NCBI GenBank assembly: GCA_050633245.1
Contig: JBOEGD010000011.1
Location: forward strand, 256,001 to 320,000
Reading direction: 5' to 3'
Source of the DNA: Calditrichia bacterium
Lineage (GTDB): Bacteria; Calditrichota; Calditrichia; RBG-13-44-9; J075
Length of the DNA: 64,000 nt
Shown: positions 1-8,205 of the stretch, in pieces
Position numbering within the stretch: position 1 is the first letter of the stretch
Layout: each line of letters starts with the position of its first letter
The notes under the pieces: model-generated
The model's input: the letters and a program-made list of their open reading frames with translations, nothing else
What the model was told of the DNA's origin: nothing
Databases searched by the model: none
Made by a program: the position numbers and the translations under genes

Positions 1-160
1 TGCCTTGAAGGAGATCAATAGCTCTATTAAATAATAAGGAGTAGCCAGCAGAACGGACTTTACGATCAATAATAAACATACTACACAAATTTGAGTTTTA
101 TAATTCTATCGCTCATCTGCTAGGATAAGCCCTACCAGACCAATTCACCCCACCAAACCC

Positions 161-189
161 TTGCATTCCCACCATCTTGGCTATACCTT
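161..189 (+). promoter_or_regulatory. Putative sigma70 promoter of first cargo cassette
   Basis: TTGCAT(161-166)-17 nt-TACCTT(184-189); similar context (ACCAAA..CTTGCATT..TATAC.TTT) at 4891-4929. Confidence 0.5.
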
Positions 190-303
190 TGAAGAGTCTT
201 AAGTAAAATCTCCCCAGATGATATAGTGTGCAAAGAGCAATTCAGTTCTTTGTTCGTTACATATTGATTTCTCAGGTCGCGTTAATACAGTGGTGGAGAC
301 GGA

Positions 304-723
304 ATGAGCGATTACAAATACAGCGAACAAATATCATCTTTACACAATTGCCCTCCTACTAATTATTCTCCTCAAGCTACCGATGCATATAGATTTGTAT
401 ATAAATCTAATCCTGAAAGAAGTTATATCCCTGTTGCAAAAGGAAACCCTAAAAGAATTAATGATAGAAGTGATATGAAAAAGTGTCAAGCTTGGGGTTT
501 GTCTTTTTTTAATACTGAAGAAAACGCAATAGCTAAGTTTGAGGATTTAAAAAGGAGAAATAAGAATATAGCTAAAACTATTGGTGATTCTATCGCTCTT
601 GTTAAATTAGAAGAGTCAGACGGAGTATGTTCTCCAGTTGGAGAAAAAGGACACTTCACCCTCCATGAAAGAGGGGAATCTAAATTTAGTGAAAGAAATG
701 AAGTCATAAAAGAACTGAGCTGA
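304..723 (+). CDS. Small hypothetical protein, putative ADP-ribosyltransferase-like (Tse2-like) fold
   Basis: SD GGAG upstream; motif order CPP..YR30F..P..C..GLS67FF..GH117FTLH resembles the R-S-H triad of ART-like toxins. Confidence 0.55.
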   Translation: MSDYKYSEQISSLHNCPPTNYSPQATDAYRFVYKSNPERSYIPVAKGNPKRINDRSDMKKCQAWGLSFFNTEENAIAKFEDLKRRNKNIAKTIGDSIALVKLEESDGVCSPVGEKGHFTLHERGESKFSERNEVIKELS

Positions 724-724
724 C

Positions 725-1954
725 GTGATGGAAAGTTTCAAAAATACAGAACTTTCAGAATTTCCAATCAAAAACCTTTCGAAGGTTTCTGACTTGATTT
801 ATTATGAAGGTCCGCTCTTGTCGCACTTTATTAGTCCCTCGGGTGATAATTACCTATATCTATGGTGTGATGTTGATACAGTCACAAACAGATGGCTTAT
901 TCTGAGAGTGACATCTGAAAAGCTATATAATTATTTGCGTCAAAAAGTTACTCTTCTTGAATTGGTCACCTCACCTGCTGATGGCTTTCTTTATTCGGTT
1001 GACATTGATGAGAATCTAGTGTACAGAAATATTTATATGCTTACTCCGGAGAATATACCTCAAAGTTACTTGCCTGAAAAAGATTCATATTCTACATCTG
1101 AGCCTGAAAGTGTTAAATTTGATTTACTCGATTTGTCACGCTTATATAACTCAAACCTATTTAATATTCATTTGAAAAGAGGACCTGGTATAGGCTACGG
1201 CACGGCTAATGTTTCGACGCTTGCTGATTTACTCTCCGCTTTTAGTGATTTAGCCGAAGAAGTAACAGGTGATGTTTTATATAAGCATAAAGAAAGTAGA
1301 CGAGCGCCTAAAGTAGATATAAAGCGTTATTCCGAATTTGAGTTGATAGAAAAGCGGGCAGCCTCATTTAGTTTGATTTTGCGTCCAATCCAAAAACAAG
1401 TTGCTATTCCGGGCACTGTAGATATTCAGCAAGAAATAATTGAACAAATATTTAAGCTGTTTTCAAAAAGTGAAAGCCTTGAAGAACTGCATACAATTGT
1501 AGATGAATACAGTGATGATGCAATTGACAAGTATCAGAAAATATTGAAGTTTATCAGTCACAATAAAATGCATGTTGAATTTAATTGGGCAAGCTTGTCT
1601 ACAGAGATTTTAGAGTCTGATTTTTTTAATCCGACAAAATCTGCAAAGATTATTGATAATATTAATTTTCTCGAAATTAGCAGAGAAAAAACTATATCTG
1701 AAGAAGGTCTGTTCCAGGCAGTGAATCTAAAAACAAGGACATATACTTTTGTCCAAGTTGAGACCAAATTGCAATTATCCAAGGGGAAATTTGCTAAGAG
1801 TTTGACAAAAACAATAGATCGATTGAATCTGGGGCATGTTTATGAGATTACTATCGTACGTCAATCCTTGAAGATCTCTGGTAAGTCGACTGTTAAGCAT
1901 GAGGATATAATAATTGATCTTAAGGTAATTGAACATCCGAGTGAGCTAGCATAA
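725..1954 (+). CDS. DUF6575-like N-terminal domain protein with C-terminal beta-rich (OB-like) region
   Basis: N-terminal LIYYEGPLLSHF..YLYLWCD....RWL..VT.E.L..YL...TL pattern recalled as DUF6575; starts 1 nt after upstream stop (GTG 725 or ATG 728). Confidence 0.6.
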   Translation: MMESFKNTELSEFPIKNLSKVSDLIYYEGPLLSHFISPSGDNYLYLWCDVDTVTNRWLILRVTSEKLYNYLRQKVTLLELVTSPADGFLYSVDIDENLVYRNIYMLTPENIPQSYLPEKDSYSTSEPESVKFDLLDLSRLYNSNLFNIHLKRGPGIGYGTANVSTLADLLSAFSDLAEEVTGDVLYKHKESRRAPKVDIKRYSEFELIEKRAASFSLILRPIQKQVAIPGTVDIQQEIIEQIFKLFSKSESLEELHTIVDEYSDDAIDKYQKILKFISHNKMHVEFNWASLSTEILESDFFNPTKSAKIIDNINFLEISREKTISEEGLFQAVNLKTRTYTFVQVETKLQLSKGKFAKSLTKTIDRLNLGHVYEITIVRQSLKISGKSTVKHEDIIIDLKVIEHPSELA

Positions 1955-2007
1955 TTTACTTAAGTCTTAACTATTCTCACCAGCTTCAAGGTTAAAGAGA
2001 GACTTTC

Positions 2008-3015
2008 ATGAACGAACGAATAGACAAACCCCGGGTGTTTCTATCCCATTCGAGCAAGGATAAACCCTTTATCCGGAAAGTGGAAGCTGATTTGCGGAGA
2101 TGTCAGATTAATACCTGGTTGGATGAAATAGATATCAGACATGGACAATCTTGGCTATCAGCTATATTCGAAGATGGTCTACCTAACTGTGATTCTGTAT
2201 TGGTCTATCTGACAAAGGACTCGATTGAATCGGAGATGGTTAAAAAGGAGATGGATGCTGGTATTCTTGGTAAATTGAATGACGGCAATGTTAGCTTCCT
2301 ACCTTATGTAAGTGATAGTAAGCTAAGAAGCGCGCTTAGAATCGATTTGCAAGGCTTACATGTTTTAGAGTGGAATGAGGATAATTATTACGAGTTGTTG
2401 CCAGTAATTGTAGCTGAGATTTGGAGGAGCTATACAGAGCGACGTGTGGCACATGCAGTTCAGAGTGAGAAAGTGCGAAGGCTTGAGGCTGAGTTGGAGC
2501 TTGAGAAAACGAAGTCGGATTCACCATTTAGCGGGCAAGAAGATGCTGAGTTTGAAAATATTTATAGAAAGACTAATAGAAGTTTAAGTTTTAGTGTAAT
2601 TTTTTTTGGAAAAGTAGATAATCCAGTAGACCCTGAAGATTACGAATTTGAAGACCGTGAAATAGGTACTAAACATTATCAATTTAATATGCTTGGCATT
2701 CTAAAAAGCCTAGGATACCATAAGTCTGTCTCTTCTTTCGATTTAAATCTCCTACTGACCGAAAAATCTAGAGAGGTTATAAAGAAGCGCGGAATAGAAC
2801 GCGCTCCGAGAATAAATTTCGAACCTAATATTATAATCGAAGAATTTTTAAAGCTCGGTCTATTCAATGGGTATCCTGACGATTGTCTAGTTGAGAGGGA
2901 AAAATATTATCGTTTAAAAAATTGGTGTGATTACTACGACAAAGAATTCCCAGAATTAGTTCTTGAGGAGATTGACCCTTCTAAGGAATGCACAAACACC
3001 CCACCTCCCACTTGA
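2008..3015 (+). CDS. TIR (TIR_2) domain protein with coiled-coil and unknown C-terminal domain
   Basis: VFLSHSSKDK..WLDE..I..G....S..S.MV..E81 TIR motifs; catalytic-position Glu retained. Confidence 0.85.
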   Translation: MNERIDKPRVFLSHSSKDKPFIRKVEADLRRCQINTWLDEIDIRHGQSWLSAIFEDGLPNCDSVLVYLTKDSIESEMVKKEMDAGILGKLNDGNVSFLPYVSDSKLRSALRIDLQGLHVLEWNEDNYYELLPVIVAEIWRSYTERRVAHAVQSEKVRRLEAELELEKTKSDSPFSGQEDAEFENIYRKTNRSLSFSVIFFGKVDNPVDPEDYEFEDREIGTKHYQFNMLGILKSLGYHKSVSSFDLNLLLTEKSREVIKKRGIERAPRINFEPNIIIEEFLKLGLFNGYPDDCLVEREKYYRLKNWCDYYDKEFPELVLEEIDPSKECTNTPPPT

Positions 3016-3053
3016 TACTTTCCTCGGATGTGTTTATTATTATACACTCCCCG
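3005..3053 (+). repeat. 49-bp direct repeat copy 1, containing a sigma70 promoter
   Basis: 44/49 identical to 4716-4764; contains TTGATA-17 nt-TATTAT and supplies the TGA stop of the TIR gene. Confidence 0.9.
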
Positions 3054-3159
3054 ATAGTTTTTCTGGTGTTGAGTCTATTAAATTGGGAATGAGAATTGAT
3101 TAATGGACTCATCTTAACTTTTTTCTCTTCGTTGAAAAAATAATTGATATGGGTTTGAA

Positions 3160-3954
3160 GTGATGTCAGAGCGCAAACACATAAAGGTCCAACTGCTACC
3201 TGCCCCCCTCAATAAGTTATATCATACTACAATATCAGTTGATAAGACTATTAAAGATATTATAAACTATTTAATCGAAGAAGGACTTCTTGTCGGGTCT
3301 TCTGATCAACAATATATTGTTGATTTGTATGAGGATAAAAAAAGTATTTACCTAGACCAAGATAAGACTCTAGAAGAATTACAGATAAAGAATAATAGTA
3401 TCATTAGAGTTTATCCTTATCTACCAGGAGGAGAAGATGTAGAGAGGTCTATTGAAATTGGTGTGGAGGTAAAGGAAAGTGTAATTATTACCGGAGACCA
3501 GACATATATAGACAACACGAACATGTCTGAGCCAACGCCTAAGGATGCTGCCTCTCGCTCTATATTCGACCGTATCGTCGGGGGGCCTGGTTTAAAGCTC
3601 TTAGGAGTTTTAGGTTTGTTGTTGGGGAATGCATTCCTTGTTTGGTGGCCTTTTTCAGAGAATCTCAACCTTGGTCAATATGCGAACAAAATGGAAATGG
3701 GGATTATAGTGGGCTGGGAAAAGCCAGCCGAGATTATGCCAACTAGATACCTTCTAGAGGCTAAGTCTCTAGATGAGGAAATAACCCTTCTGGAAAGTTT
3801 AGTCGCTGGGAAAAAACAAGTCGGATACATGCTTGTTGATATTACTCCAGAAGCTATCTCTGGGATAATAAAGGAGTATAGAATTAGAGTCATAGTTAAA
3901 GGCGATACGATTTCCCAAACAGAATGGTTTAGAGTTAAATCAGAGTCTAATTAA
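3160..3954 (+). CDS. Ubiquitin-like (YukD/EsaB-type beta-grasp) domain fused to a single-TM membrane protein
   Basis: aa 1-91: IKVQL..TI.DII..L..LDQDKTLEELQIKNNSIIRVYPYLPGG, a Ubl pattern ending in GG; hydrophobic segment LLGVLGLLLGNAFLVWWPF. Confidence 0.6.
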   Translation: MMSERKHIKVQLLPAPLNKLYHTTISVDKTIKDIINYLIEEGLLVGSSDQQYIVDLYEDKKSIYLDQDKTLEELQIKNNSIIRVYPYLPGGEDVERSIEIGVEVKESVIITGDQTYIDNTNMSEPTPKDAASRSIFDRIVGGPGLKLLGVLGLLLGNAFLVWWPFSENLNLGQYANKMEMGIIVGWEKPAEIMPTRYLLEAKSLDEEITLLESLVAGKKQVGYMLVDITPEAISGIIKEYRIRVIVKGDTISQTEWFRVKSESN

Positions 3955-3976
3955 TTGGAGTCCATGAATCTTCTAA

Positions 3977-4648
3977 ATGCAAAATTTCTCAAACAAATTC
4001 CGTCGCTTCTTGCATGAGTATATTGGGGATATAATAATTGTTTTAAGCGTAAGCTTTGTTTTGCTTGGTTCTATACGAGGCTACCAATATTGGGCCTCCA
4101 CAGACGAGCTTGCGCAAATAAAAACGATGACTGATCTGGCTAAAGCGGCGATCACTACTTTAATTGGTGCCATCGCTGCAATTGCCGGTTATCGCCGATA
4201 TTTCAAGGGAAGGACTTTCTCTGAACGTGCAGTAATCGAGTTGACATCAAAACCTATATGTGAAATCCAAGTTCCTCAACTTGAAGAAGATCCGGAGAAT
4301 GACGGAAATAAAAGAACATCAGAGAAAATGCTACTGCATGCGGTTGATGTTGCGATTGAAAATATAGGTTCACTAACTATTTGGGAACCTAAACTGAGAG
4401 TTAGTGCGAGGCATCTTGATTCGATTGAAGAATTCACTCAATACGGCTTTGAGGACAAAATTGAGACAGAAGTTGCACCGTTAAGCATCTCTGGGATCGA
4501 GCCAGGGGAGAAGATCTTCCACCACGTTAGATTTATTGTGCCAAAGGATATTCCTGCATTCAGAGTTGATTCCGAATTGAGCACATCGAGAAACAACATT
4601 TGGCATCGAGCGACTACTGTGGCAAACTTTATTCTAAAGAAGGACTAG
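3977..4648 (+). CDS. Hypothetical membrane protein (2 N-terminal TM segments, beta-rich C-terminal domain)
   Basis: 223-aa ORF 22 nt after the upstream gene; two hydrophobic segments; VAIENIG..GIEPGEK pattern is Ig-like. Confidence 0.65.
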   Translation: MQNFSNKFRRFLHEYIGDIIIVLSVSFVLLGSIRGYQYWASTDELAQIKTMTDLAKAAITTLIGAIAAIAGYRRYFKGRTFSERAVIELTSKPICEIQVPQLEEDPENDGNKRTSEKMLLHAVDVAIENIGSLTIWEPKLRVSARHLDSIEEFTQYGFEDKIETEVAPLSISGIEPGEKIFHHVRFIVPKDIPAFRVDSELSTSRNNIWHRATTVANFILKKD

Positions 4649-4715
4649 ATATTCATTCAGCTACGTCGCCAGCATCCCATCTATAACAGCAAGCATTGCT
4701 ACGCTGTTGGGATAG

Positions 4716-4764
4716 CTCCCGCTTGATACTTTCCTCGGTTATGTTTATTATTATGCACTCCTCG
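4716..4764 (+). repeat. 49-bp direct repeat copy 2, containing a sigma70 promoter
   Basis: CTCCCgCTTGATACTTTCCTCGGtTaTGTTTATTATTATgCACTCCtCG; 5 mismatches to 3005-3053. Confidence 0.9.
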
Positions 4765-4899
4765 TCACTATTCTCGCACTTAACTAGATCGAGACCGAAC
4801 GCCCATGCGCTTTCACTCCACACCAGAATCTGCACATAACACTGTCAGCGAGAATTTCCCCGCTGTATGCTAGTTAGTGTTGGGTAGGCTACCAAAGAC

Positions 4900-4928
4900 T
4901 TGCATTTCCGGTTGGAAGATTATACATT
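4900..4928 (+). promoter_or_regulatory. Putative sigma70 promoter of second TIR gene
   Basis: TTGCAT(4900-4905)-17 nt-TACATT(4923-4928). Confidence 0.55.
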
Positions 4929-5052
4929 TAAAGCGTCGCATCCACTCCCCATAATACAATCTACTGGTTGACCGCTAACGGTTTAATCCTCTTTTTATTA
5001 ACCAGTGGCTATGGAATAAACTCATACATTTGACCTTTAGCTGAGAGCAAAT

Positions 5053-6690
5053 ATGAACGCTAAGCCAATTACTGTTTTCCTTTCTTACGCCAGTCAGGAT
5101 AGAGAACCCATTGAAGAATTGTATGAGAAGTTGGCTGAGAATGGCTTTAGTCCATGGATGGATGGAAAGTCTATATTGCCTGGCAGCGACAGAGAATATG
5201 TTACCAAGAAGGCTCTGAACGAGGCAGATTTTTTCATATCATGTCTTTCGAGTAATTCTGTGAATAAAAGAGGATTTGTTCAGAAAGAGCTTAAACAGGC
5301 ATTGGATTTGTGGCAGGAAAAGTTGCCGGAAGATATTTATTTGATTCCTCTCAAGTTGGAAAAATGTCAGGTACCTGAATCTTTAAAGAAATTTCAATCT
5401 GTTGATTATTTTTCAGATGGAGGCGAAGCAAAGTTGTTTAAGGCTCTCAAAATGAGAACAAATGGAAAAGCTGAAGCTGAAATGCCCCTTAACATGGTTA
5501 GTGAAATAACAGATGCAACTACTACCGTTCAAGAAGAAATTGCAATAAAAGAGAAAACTCTGGACGTAGAAATTACACTAAAGGGTGATATAAAAGACTT
5601 TTCCGAAGATAAGCGAGCTCGCCTTCTTAAAGTCCTGGAAGAGCTTCTTGAAATAAACGATGGTGAATTAAAGATTAAAAAAATTAGAAAGGGGAGTGTT
5701 AAAGTAACGGTCGAACTTTCTCCAGAGCAGGCTGAAAAGCTTATGTGGGCTGTGAAAGCCGGAATGTTTAGTGATGTAAATATTATAGATGCCGAAATTC
5801 GAACTTTTGATAACGAGATGCCCACCGAAGAATCCATATTACCTAAACATAAAAGAGAATACGATACCGAAAAACAGGTAGCTGAATTAGAACAAACTAT
5901 TGTTCCATTATTAGAACTTTGGGAATTTCAAAATCCTCAAAAATCAGAAAAAGGAAAGGTCGAGTTTTGGATTGTTGTTAATCTAGGAACAGAAATTCAG
6001 CAAACGAATGATCTTGTTCGCCACCTTTTTAATTTAGGGGTGCCGATTTTGGCCGATGCAATGATTTTAGAAAATTTACAGGATCTTAATTTTTTAAATC
6101 GTTTTTTTAAAGGATCCGCGGATAGTTTCAAGTTTGGGGTAATTGTCTCTATATCACGGTCCTTACCAAATGCTCAGGAGTTAGACAATATAATACTTGT
6201 TCTAAATATGTGGACTGAGAAGTTTAATGTAGAAGTTGTTCCAGTCCAGCATTACTCAGAAAATAATCAAGCATTAAGTAAATTTAAGCAGCAATTATGG
6301 ACCTTATCCTTTGAACAACATGACTCTAAGTTTAATCAAGCTTGGATTAAGCGTTTCACAAAATATGTGTTTTTCAATAGCCGCTTTGCTCTACTGGGTT
6401 TTAAAAGTCACCCTCAAAATGCTGACTTTCATGATGATTCTAGGAGAATCCCATTCCCTGAACCGTTAAGAATGCGTCCGCCATTCTCTTTATTAATTAA
6501 AACCTTCTCCCAACCTTTGAATATTTTTGAGCTGTCTGAAATAATCAAAAAATCACCGGAAAGTATAATGGATGTCGGATTTGAAGCTGGAATATATATA
6601 AATATTTTTGAATACTTAGATCCCCCACTTTTGGAATTAATCCTTGAAGGATTTGGATACAAAAAAGATAGATCCTTTCTAGGCTCGTAG
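5053..6690 (+). CDS. Multidomain TIR (TIR_2) protein
   Basis: VFLSYASQDR..GFSPWMD...ILPG..ADFFISCLS..S...GFVQKE79L; central domain with IRKGSVKV; unknown C-terminal domain. Confidence 0.85.
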   Translation: MNAKPITVFLSYASQDREPIEELYEKLAENGFSPWMDGKSILPGSDREYVTKKALNEADFFISCLSSNSVNKRGFVQKELKQALDLWQEKLPEDIYLIPLKLEKCQVPESLKKFQSVDYFSDGGEAKLFKALKMRTNGKAEAEMPLNMVSEITDATTTVQEEIAIKEKTLDVEITLKGDIKDFSEDKRARLLKVLEELLEINDGELKIKKIRKGSVKVTVELSPEQAEKLMWAVKAGMFSDVNIIDAEIRTFDNEMPTEESILPKHKREYDTEKQVAELEQTIVPLLELWEFQNPQKSEKGKVEFWIVVNLGTEIQQTNDLVRHLFNLGVPILADAMILENLQDLNFLNRFFKGSADSFKFGVIVSISRSLPNAQELDNIILVLNMWTEKFNVEVVPVQHYSENNQALSKFKQQLWTLSFEQHDSKFNQAWIKRFTKYVFFNSRFALLGFKSHPQNADFHDDSRRIPFPEPLRMRPPFSLLIKTFSQPLNIFELSEIIKKSPESIMDVGFEAGIYINIFEYLDPPLLELILEGFGYKKDRSFLGS

Positions 6691-6792
6691 CTTTAATCCT
6701 ACGTTTTGTAGTATAAGTCCGACAAAGCCCTTGCTTTTCCTATATTTCTCACCTTATTTCTCCTCATAAGCATTCAAGGAGGATACCTACCC

Positions 6793-7089
6793 ATGTTTTT
6801 ATTCGACTACGCGATCGACCGCAACCGCTGGCTGTGGTTTCACATCTTAGCCGGGGGAGTAGCAGGTCTCTTGCTCATCAGCCTTCATATCCCAGCCATA
6901 TCCGGAGTTTTCATTGCAGCTTGCATCTGGGAGGCCATAGAAGCGCTGTGGAATCACATGGGCGGCGGCTTTGAGCTCAATGGTTATGGCAATGAGCGGG
7001 AAGGGATCTCTCCTCTTACGCATTTTCTGCTAGACGCTGTAGCTGATATTACCGGTGCGGTGCTGATGGCTGCGGTAGTGGTGGCCTAA
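6793..7089 (+). CDS. Small phage-like membrane protein
   Basis: Strong SD AAGGAGG; hydrophobic 98 aa; GC higher than upstream cargo; upstream of the terS remnant. Confidence 0.65.
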   Translation: MFLFDYAIDRNRWLWFHILAGGVAGLLLISLHIPAISGVFIAACIWEAIEALWNHMGGGFELNGYGNEREGISPLTHFLLDAVADITGAVLMAAVVVA

Positions 7090-7107
7090 ACTTAAGGAGA
7101 GCTTATC

Positions 7108-7344
7108 ATGGAAGGAGTCAAGCCAACAGTGAAGTGGGAATTTAAGCCGGCTGAATTAGTGAACTTAATCCTGGTCGGCATTAGCCTGATCGGGTTTTTC
7201 TATAATGCACATTTTCGCATTGAGCAGCTGGAGCGGGAAGTGAAGTCCATTAAGCAGAGCTACGTGAGATCAGAAGTCTTTGAGGCCGAGATGGAGCATA
7301 TCAAAGGCAGGTTAGATGATATTTTAATCGAGGTGAGGAAGTAA
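7108..7344 (+). CDS. Small single-TM + coiled-coil phage protein (holin/XhlA-like accessory)
   Basis: SD AAGGAG; TM aa ~17-33 then coiled coil YVRSEVFEAEMEHIKGRLDDI. Confidence 0.6.
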   Translation: MEGVKPTVKWEFKPAELVNLILVGISLIGFFYNAHFRIEQLEREVKSIKQSYVRSEVFEAEMEHIKGRLDDILIEVRK

Positions 7345-7470
7345 GTGGCTAGCCTGACTGCCAAACAGAAACGCTTTTGCGAAGAATACATACTCGATTT
7401 CAATACAAAAGCTGCTGCAGAGCGGGCAGGGTATAGTTTGCTCTGTCTCATTGAACTTTTACCACTTTAG
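7345..7470 (+). pseudogene. terS: Truncated phage terminase small subunit (N-terminal HTH only)
   Basis: GTG directly after upstream stop; translates MASLTAKQKRFCEEYILDFNTKAAAERAGYS (classic TerS N-terminus) then unrelated LLCLIELLPL* at 41 aa; below ORF-track size. Confidence 0.85.
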
Positions 7471-7480
7471 TGTTAATCAG

Positions 7481-7516
7481 AACAGCCCGCTTCTGCTTAT
7501 GCAGAAGCGGGCTGTT
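7481..7516. terminator. Perfect 16-bp inverted repeat, probable bidirectional terminator
   Basis: AACAGCCCGCTTCTGC-TTAT-GCAGAAGCGGGCTGTT followed by T-rich run; 12 nt from the tRNA 3' end. Confidence 0.85.
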
Positions 7517-7528
7517 TTGTTTTTCCAG

Positions 7529-7601
7529 AGCCACCGAGCGGAGTCGAACCGCTGACCCCTTCATTACGAGTGAAGTGCTCTACCAGCTGAGCTACGGTGG
7601 C
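7529..7601 (-). tRNA. tRNA-Thr(CGT), no encoded CCA
   Basis: Reverse complement GCCACCGTAGCTCAGCTGGTAGAGCACTTCACTCGTAATGAAGGGGTCAGCGGTTCGACTCCGCTCGGTGGCT folds as a cloverleaf; anticodon CGT; TTCGA T-loop. Confidence 0.97.
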
Positions 7602-7613
7602 TAATGAGGCCAA

Positions 7614-7642
7614 AAATTAAAAGATGGTAAGATGGATTGCAA
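7614..7642 (-). promoter_or_regulatory. Putative tRNA promoter
   Basis: Minus strand TTGCAA-17 nt-TAATTT, 12 nt upstream of the tRNA. Confidence 0.55.
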
Positions 7643-7818
7643 CCTTTTTTTGCGAATTGAATAAAATTTATACGGTAGGTATTGCGTTTTGAGAAGTTGC
7701 ACATTTTGGTAGGGGCAGGATGCCTAAAAAACATTGCTCAATGTGACAAATATCGCGGCGGAGCAGGGGAGTGCCGATTATGTTTGTATAAGGAGAAACT
7801 ACTACGCGAGGGAAACGC

Positions 7819-8205
7819 ATGAGCTTGTTTAATCTGGTGAAAATCCTTGGTTCCATCGCTCTGGCTTTGCAGAGCGCCATCATCGTATTTATCTACATGC
7901 CTCATACCTCCGGAGAAGCTCCGATCCTTTCAATGTCTGCTGCCAGTGGTTTGTTTACATTACTTGCCATTTTACTTCCATCGCTATTTGTTACCGAACA
8001 GCGCATTAAGGTGCCGCGCTATATGCTGATTACCTCTCTGGCGATCATGACGTTTATTATTCTATTAGCCAATGCCACAGACAATATTGCGAGGTTTTCT
8101 GCGGCCATAACCTGTGCGCTGGTAGGGGCGGTTACGGCGTGGTATCTGCAAAGGAGGGCAGAGCGGCTCACCGTTCCGCAACAGGGCGATCGGGAGACGG
8201 GGTGA
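7819..8205 (+). CDS. Hypothetical 4-TM membrane protein
   Basis: SD GAGGG; four hydrophobic segments. Confidence 0.65.
   Translation: MSLFNLVKILGSIALALQSAIIVFIYMPHTSGEAPILSMSAASGLFTLLAILLPSLFVTEQRIKVPRYMLITSLAIMTFIILLANATDNIARFSAAITCALVGAVTAWYLQRRAERLTVPQQGDRETG

Follow-up and report, generated by a model that had tools for sequence, protein, structure and literature searches.

The promoter-early stem-loop (PeSL) elements of the T4-type phages RB49 and phi1 are mobile regulatory cassettes (Arbiol et al. 2010, PMC2839356; Comeau et al. 2014, PMC4122927). In the parts of those reports on which we draw, PeSLs are repeated sigma-70-like promoter units that directly precede orphan genes in plastic regions; the units include the stop codon of the gene before them, single cassettes are bracketed, and no dedicated recombinase is involved. 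The authors proposed recombination between units as the mechanism and, in the same parts, wrote that there was as yet no evidence of such plasticity in cellular organisms (PMC2839356). Here we describe a 49-bp direct repeat from a Calditrichia bacterium (GenBank assembly GCA_050633245.1; 6.35 Mb in 59 contigs) for which PeSLs, by analogy, appear to be the closest described system. The repeat lies in a stretch of 64,000 nt of contig JBOEGD010000011.1 (C11), referred to below as the window (C11:256001-320000), and positions are those of the window unless a contig or locus is named. On balance, we favor the interpretation that the repeat is a portable promoter module that has acted as a joint between gene cassettes.

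The two copies in the window, at 3005-3053 and 4716-4764, are identical at 44 of 49 positions. A 40-nt pattern that tolerates the differences between copies matched these two sites only in the window and none of 100 dinucleotide shuffles. Both copies, on the plus strand, contain the hexamers TTGATA and TATTAT with a 17-nt spacer (3012-3040 and 4723-4751), in the layout of a -35 element (3012-3017 in copy 1, 4723-4728 in copy 2) and a -10 element (3035-3040 and 4746-4751). The only notable open reading frames (ORFs) between the copies encode proteins of 264 aa (3160/3163-3954) and 223 aa (3977-4648). Immediately upstream, a TIR-domain ORF (2008-3015) ends in the protein tail TNTPPPT, and its TGA stop codon (3013-3015) falls within the TTGATA hexamer of copy 1. 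An earlier note on this stretch had pointed out the repeat, the hexamers, the enclosure of exactly two genes, and the stop codon supplied by copy 1, and all four observations held. The same note had allowed for an assembly artifact, which is unlikely because the copies differ at five positions, another contig holds a third copy, and an independent assembly has a fourth.

A pattern search, blastn, and an nhmmer profile agreed that there are exactly three copies in the genome. The third, at C9:92487-92541 on contig C9, sits, by eye, about 135 nt past a gene for a type IX secretion system (T9SS) protein and its terminator-like hairpin, where the GC content drops from 0.50 to 0.31 at the start of a second low-GC island. 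All three genomic copies are within low-GC islands and in the same orientation as the next gene. Short repeats as such are not rare in this genome, since a genome self-blast placed 291 loci in repeats of 40 to 120 nt; within the two islands, module copies alone appear among them. The possibility raised earlier, that the repeat is a dispersed element unrelated to cassette boundaries, does not hold, as the three copies are all located at cassette or island boundaries.

Outside the genome, a scan of metagenome_contigs found the module on one contig of 2654 nt (L009). Read along its minus strand, L009 carries first a diverged module copy, a gene for an extracytoplasmic function (ECF)-type sigma factor (193 aa), and a 196-aa ORF (L009:1760-2457, minus strand), and then a close module copy, a 297-aa multi-helix membrane ORF, and, at the contig end, 33 nt that are 94% (93.9%) identical by blastn to window positions 6707-6739. 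The latter belong to a second short conserved module, B3 (6707-6748, plus strand), directly upstream of a 98-aa gene; in a gapped local alignment, B3 matched the end of L009 at 39 of 42 positions. Besides the module and the B3 stretch, L009 has no blastn match to the genome, and BLASTP matched none of its three proteins to those of the islands. All five copies, three genomic and two in L009, are oriented like the ORF that follows them. The sigma gene and the 196-aa ORF could be an autoregulated sigma/partner pair carried as cargo.

Homology between these sites is confined to the module. In local alignments of 14 intergenic regions (both islands and L009), it was limited to 44 to 60 nt with sharp ends. 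Copy 1 is homologous to the L009 copy from position 2993 onward (55/60), and therefore the final seven codons of the TIR gene and its stop codon are module sequence that is intergenic in L009. Copy 1 of the full module accordingly spans 2993-3053, including a C-rich ACTCCCC box at 3046-3052, and copy 2 spans 4716-4764. By blastn, the close L009 copy was 93.3% identical to the C9 copy over 60 nt, 91.7% identical to copy 1 over 60 nt, and 93.5% identical to copy 2 over 46 nt. The genomic copies, which match one another at 44/49, 49/55, and 41/44 positions, are no closer mutually than they are to the L009 copy (55/60 and 56/60), which argues for an old conserved unit that predates its arrival here rather than a fresh local duplication.

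Both hexamers and the first 10 spacer bases are invariant among the four close copies, and the differences, compared by eye, fall in the distal spacer and after the -10 element. This pattern would fit a promoter, although four copies are too few to test it. The same layout recurs, at greater divergence, at two further sites (z of about 7 against 30 shuffles), one before the L009 sigma gene and the other before a pentapeptide gene of the second island. Also in that island, a C-rich stretch right after the stop of a pentapeptide gene (L004:19104-19135, or C9:101603-101634) resembles the 5' part of the module and contains an internal duplication of 8 nt; of the only five sites of its 10-mer CCCACCTCCC in the genome, two are in module copies. 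Between the core of copy 1 (3015-3041) and positions 6540-6566, inside a 545-aa TIR gene farther downstream, there is an inverted match of 27 nt (78% complementary), which is in the range of other chance pairs listed alongside it.

We compared the module with promoters of the genome's own tRNA genes because a generic sigma-70 scan is uninformative in AT-rich DNA. Seventeen of the 35 tRNA genes have TTGACA-like and TATATT-like hexamers ending 8 to 40 nt before the tRNA, with a 17-nt spacer in 14 of the 17, often then followed by TG. A TAnnTTTG -10 motif is characteristic of Bacteroidota, and the -10 element of these tRNA promoters resembles it. A position weight matrix (PWM) was built from the 17 promoters and ranked over 12.68 million genome positions; copies 1 and 2 both scored 14.7 (top 3.2e-5 of positions), and the C9 copy scored 12.6 (top 7.4e-5). 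A sigma-54 or ECF-type reading of the hexamers gave no fit by eye against the consensus sequences. The idea that the module is a general promoter of TIR paralogs was likewise rejected, as none of 11 upstream regions rose above the shuffle maximum (z ≤3.0). A 15-nt identity at C37:9348, on contig C37, was within chance.

The earlier note had also described a looser second promoter motif before the other cassettes. Motif B1 (154-191, plus strand; TTGCAT 161-166, a 17-nt spacer, TACCTT 184-189) lies upstream of a defense gene pair, and motif B2 (4893-4928, plus strand; TTGCAT 4900-4905, a 17-nt spacer, TACATT 4923-4928) lies 125 nt upstream of the 545-aa TIR gene. The likeness is real to the extent that 154-169 and 4893-4908 have in common a 16-nt pattern with only three matches genome-wide, two of them in this island; as a promoter, only the site at 4893 scores well (4893-4928, 11.8, top 1e-4), in contrast to that at 154-191 (3.8, top 3e-3). 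The third site named there (6722-6760) has a weak likeness to the other two, and the site from 6731 scores 5.3 (top 1.7e-3), yet it is this region that the metagenome contig shares, with 94% identity across 33 nt.

Across the two islands, the 7-mer ACTCCCC is enriched, with 12 occurrences against an expectation of 2.06 (P 1.8e-6). It stands 5 nt after a -10-like hexamer, approximately at the expected start site, in several unrelated island promoters; its sites include window 3046-3052, C9:97360(-), C9:105909(-), C11:249311(+), and C11:260944(+), among others. The box may be a shared start-site or regulatory element.

Such a shared box is what one would expect if the repeat were a promoter or operator and nothing else, in which case a single regulator or sigma factor would govern a private regulon and the cassettes would move by unrelated, nonhomologous events. 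That the conserved footprint extends from about -50 to +10 and includes the spacer, more than hexamer recognition needs, points in this direction, as do the recurrence of ACTCCCC at other island promoters and the position of the diverged L009 copy ahead of an ECF-type sigma gene. The L009 sigma factor, however, is 29% identical to an ordinary host ECF sigma and has no BLASTP match to the sigma-like gene of the second island, and the hexamers fit housekeeping promoters. A private regulon would also leave unexplained why, in two assemblies, unrelated sequence begins at the very edge of the module and why the two short modules of L009 (the close copy and B3) occur in the same order as in the window with different genes between them. 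We regard this explanation as possible but unlikely.

We think it very improbable that the repeat is instead a site for a site-specific recombinase (attC-like or att-like), a noncoding RNA, or a gene for a small peptide. Direct repeats bracketing a cassette would suit the first of these, but no recombinase gene is present on the contigs concerned, and the four folded copies have no common hairpin (fold z-scores, -1.87, +1.62, -0.96, and +0.16), for which reason an attC identity was rejected. An inverted-repeat search found none within the copies, and there was no terminator-like site in or beside the copies or at 4649-4715. As for RNA, an Rfam search of positions 1-8000 at E values up to 1 gave a tRNA as the only match to reach its gathering score, with six weaker matches far below theirs. 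A minus-strand frame is open in all four close copies, as a peptide gene would need, but by eye the differences between copies mostly change the amino acid; a plus-strand small ORF was rejected, as the ORFs over the two window copies are in different frames. The earlier suggestion that cassettes are exchanged here without an integron agrees with these results: neither a tyrosine nor a serine recombinase was found on these contigs, and there is no attC-like hairpin.

The interpretation that we favor, that of a promoter module acting as a joint, can be put as follows. The 49-bp repeat would be the core of a portable module of about 60 bp, comprising TTGATA, a 17-bp spacer, TATTAT, and the ACTCCCC box, which is placed about where transcription should start. 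The host's main (sigma-A-type) factor probably reads it, and the module would head separate transcription units in horizontally acquired, low-GC, defense-type islands. The two copies would bracket the 264-aa/223-aa pair because one of them is the promoter of that pair and the other stands at the head of the following unit, that of the 545-aa TIR gene, which also has a second promoter-like site nearer to it. The module, with its sharp ends, precedes four unrelated genes in two assemblies, and copy 1 seems to have overwritten the end of the TIR gene; for these reasons it has probably served in evolution as a linker between joined cassettes, as proposed for PeSLs. The repeat, its copies and their boundaries, the promoter score, and the lack of recombinase genes and hairpins are direct observations, whereas promoter activity, the start site, and any part that the homology may play in recombination are inferred.

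The comparison with L009 bears on the earlier proposal of a cargo hotspot. In both assemblies the module is followed at some distance by B3; in L009 one membrane gene lies between them, and in the window the 264-aa/223-aa pair, copy 2, a promoter-like site, and the 545-aa TIR gene do. This is the kind of difference that would be expected of a cargo hotspot upstream of the 98-aa and terminase genes of a phage-like backbone. Gene content next to the module is therefore not invariant, the outcome that would have spoken against a hotspot: L009 has different genes by the same module and by the same downstream 33-nt stretch. The promoter score, the link to boundaries, and the different cargo in L009 thus support part of the proposal, whereas recombination between copies does not share that support. 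Of the comparisons that the earlier note had called for, the survey of this genome and of other assemblies yielded the three genomic copies and the one metagenome contig; the collection has 86 species genomes from the phylum, and none of the other 85 carries the repeat. The comparison of cargo in relatives yielded L009 but no related complete phage.

Several results weigh against the promoter-joint interpretation. In exact-pattern scans the module was absent from the 15 genomes of the family and from all 85 other genomes of the phylum and had 0 matches in genome_contigs and 0 in viral_contigs; a single related contig, L009, of 2.65 kb, was found. Among the relatives compared there is no variant that lacks or swaps the cassette (0/85 phylum genomes with the module), a look-up of sequencing runs containing 2400-5400 listed none, and no sign of cassette loss, gain, or circles emerged. 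Between copies 1 and 2, the two longest stretches free of mismatches measure only 17 and 13 nt. RecA-type exchange in Escherichia coli has a minimal identity of about 23 to 27 bp, and 17 nt is short for it. Copy 1 meets the TIR gene at the edge of the module and not within it, and that join looks nonhomologous; it and the short identity runs would also suit a private regulon. The promoter activity of the module is predicted; a generic sigma-70 scan found 22 sites versus 19.8 in shuffles of this AT-rich stretch, such that hexamers alone prove little. Finally, the start codon follows the -10 element of copy 1 after about 120 nt and that of the close L009 copy after about 80 nt, but for copy 2 and the C9 copy, two of the three genomic copies, the distance is about 300 nt, and copy 2 has another promoter-like site in between. 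Because of this distance, copy 2 may serve the 545-aa TIR gene as a second, distal promoter, or it may be the leftover of a join.

Compared with PeSLs as they appear in the portions of the reports that we used, the module has a sigma-70-type promoter by its matrix score, with predicted activity, and is located in a plastic region before an orphan gene, namely in low-GC islands and ahead of a 264-aa gene without a close homolog. PeSLs have a stem-loop/terminator part, which the module, in its four folded copies, does not; they occur in about 50 copies in a T4-type phage, whereas the module occurs in 3 copies in islands of a bacterial chromosome. The “linker” sequences of modular phage evolution (Botstein, Campbell) and the “morons” of Hendrix, as summarized in the part of PMC2839356 that covers them, are similar in that short conserved sequences stand at module joints and each cargo unit brings its own promoter. 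In that summary morons have their own terminator and no conserved flanks; here the promoter itself is the conserved flank, no terminator is predicted at 4649-4715, and, although a promoter-like site is present, the phage backbone is reduced to a terminase fragment.

Integrons resemble the island in being arrays of unrelated cargo genes divided by a recurring short element. They have IntI and attC hairpins, neither of which has a counterpart on this contig, where there is no recombinase and no attC-like hairpin; the element here is promoter-like and 5' of genes, and each unit thus seems to own a promoter. The defense hotspots of P2-like prophages and P4-like satellites (Rousset et al. 2022, PMC9122126), in the part of that work considered here, also have variable antiphage cargo at a fixed place in a phage-derived element. 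The island's cargo lies upstream of 98-aa, 78-aa, and terminase small subunit genes by a tRNA gene, and its backbone is a remnant for which no related complete phage was found. In a literature search of limited scope, we found no PeSL-type cassette with antiphage genes and no conserved promoters at defense hotspots.

Defense islands are well documented to gain and lose unrelated systems at fixed places, and the mechanism is poorly understood where they have no integrase or transposase. A promoter unit doubling as a cassette joint would, if true, give a simple answer, in that each incoming unit would arrive expressible and would land between genes rather than inside them. In the literature examined, this idea has experimental support only for T4-type phages. 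We consider it doubtful that the defense islands of this lineage exchange ready-to-express cassettes by general recombination at the shared promoter module; if they do, they would represent a recombinase-free, integron-like capture system of the PeSL type in a cellular genome. The present evidence makes a modest, suggestive case, not a demonstrated mechanism. What is new here are the third and fourth copies, the sharp ends of homology, and the promoter score derived from the genome itself.

The first gene of the bracketed pair (3163-3954, plus strand; frame from 3160, with ATG 3163 as the probable start, giving 264 or 263 aa) encodes a putative N-terminal ubiquitin-like domain, one predicted membrane helix, and a C-terminal domain. 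A word search of 5.8e9 proteins found no homolog, and 1.8e9 representatives contained one distant match (29% identity over residues 124-262). The single-sequence structure model has a mean pLDDT of 45, with values of 60 to 76 over approximately residues 21-90 and lower ones at the start; residues 3-93 gave mostly ubiquitin-like matches (VIA Z 6.3 to 8.8; root mean square deviation, 2.2 to 4.5 Å over 72 to 104 residues), and the Atlas model returned YukD-like and ubiquitin-like matches. The ubiquitin-like fold is thus a lead at the fold level only. The earlier description of this gene as a ubiquitin-like membrane protein is supported to that extent, from a model of low pLDDT. The ubiquitin-like domain ends in LPGG, just ahead of the linker and membrane helix. 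The sole distant relative (P0005, 355 aa) has the membrane and C-terminal part in common with the 264-aa protein and a different N-terminal domain, which, by eye, looks vWA-like.

The second gene (3977-4648, plus strand) encodes a 223-aa protein modeled as two long N-terminal helices and an Ig-like beta-sandwich (mean pLDDT, 67); the seven-strand sandwich matches generic Ig-like domains (Z 8.3 to 10). Two homolog clusters were found, at 53 to 56% identity. The 85 other genomes of the phylum contain no such gene, and the homolog P0004 has no relative in viral_contigs. Because of the island setting, we propose, with low confidence, that the pair is a candidate for membrane-acting defense or abortive infection.

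The 335-aa TIR gene that precedes copy 1 (2008-3015, plus strand; Pfam TIR_2, E 2.7e-18) has 20 homolog clusters of 305 to 357 aa with variable tails past a conserved tryptophan, and from these lengths and tails we judge the gene to be full length. Its position invites another explanation of the repeat, in which copy 1 is an internal promoter of a three-gene, Thoeris-like TIR system (a 335-aa sensor and two membrane effectors) and marks no true unit boundary. Copy 1 directly adjoins the TIR gene, the two genes after it both encode membrane proteins, and the TIR protein has weak ThsB-type PADLOC matches (E 4.1e-5); type II Thoeris effectors contain membrane helices. The three proteins, however, are probably not conserved partners. 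Homolog clusters number 20 for the TIR protein but 2 for the 223-aa protein, and for the 264-aa protein there is at most one distant match; we therefore do not think that the TIR gene and the pair form one conserved system, and we hold the three-gene explanation to be improbable.

The two window copies and their cargo are part of a low-GC block that runs from about C11:248,500 to a tRNA-Thr (CGT) gene (7528-7601, minus strand; ARAGORN; Rfam tRNA, 69 bits), its right-hand limit, with a GC content of approximately 0.33 to 0.44 versus 0.45 to 0.54 outside. All genes of the island are on the plus strand. Its left part begins with genes for a TerB/zinc-ribbon protein, an Mrr-like nuclease, and a PHROG-25239 protein, followed by an 828-aa Roc-COR-TIR protein, which is a ROCO-type GTPase with a TIR domain (L005:17002-19488, or C11:253002-255488), and a 143-aa ORF. 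Downstream of motif B1 is the defense pair PD-T4-10 A (304-723; PADLOC PD-T4-10_A, E 1.5e-37) and B (725-1954; PADLOC PD-T4-10_B, E 1.3e-34), with a Pfam DUF6575 match. Beyond copy 2, the 545-aa gene (5053-6690) combines a TIR domain (Pfam TIR_2, E 8.3e-23) with a TRADD-like N-domain (Pfam TRADD-like_N, E 1.9e-5). It is followed by 98-aa and 78-aa genes and a truncated terminase small subunit frame (6793-7470), whose homology is to residues 1-31 only (Pfam Terminase_2, E 1.1e-10; PHROG 51, E 2.3e-10).

At the left edge of the island (C11:248602-248664, or L005:12602-12664), a fragment of 21 residues is 71% identical to the 98-aa protein; this small gene thus flanks the cargo on both sides, as a remnant on the left and intact on the right. 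The island adjoins a tRNA and deviates in GC content, as tRNA-linked islands do, whereas an integrase and att direct repeats were not found. Six tyrosine recombinase matches (PF00589) and three serine recombinase matches occur in the genome, none of them on C11, C9, or C37, and no convincing att repeat of the tRNA end was detected (the best was 15/16 nt, E 0.13). A blastn search of positions 2950-7470 against 50,697 phage records gave no match, the B3 pattern had 0 matches in viral_contigs, and no relative of the 98-aa protein was confirmed in viral_contigs or genome_contigs. In the family genomes the decarboxylase and glycerate-kinase-like genes that flank the island are on different contigs, so that no syntenic empty site was found. 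From its content, we classify the block as a defense-type island, not a recognizable prophage; it is probably the remnant of a phage-like element. The term “prophage” used in the earlier note was too strong, as the 31-residue terminase small subunit fragment by the tRNA-Thr gene is all that remains.

The second low-GC island, opened by the C9 module copy, extends from C9:92,500 to about C9:110,500 (L004 10000-20000, L011 1-8100). It encodes a cNMP-binding protein, a FAD monooxygenase, an ASCH protein, a PIN-EVE protein, two pentapeptide-TIR paralogs, and a CHAT/pentapeptide protein. It also has a sigma-like gene (315 aa), after which an ORF of at least 561 aa continues beyond the end of the locus. 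T9SS-sorted proteins are present in the genome. On contig C9, a 553-aa ORF (L011:12689-14350, or C9:115188-116849, minus strand) matches Pfam Thiol_cytolysin (E 4.9e-78) and represents a cholesterol-dependent-cytolysin-like gene in an environmental bacterium.

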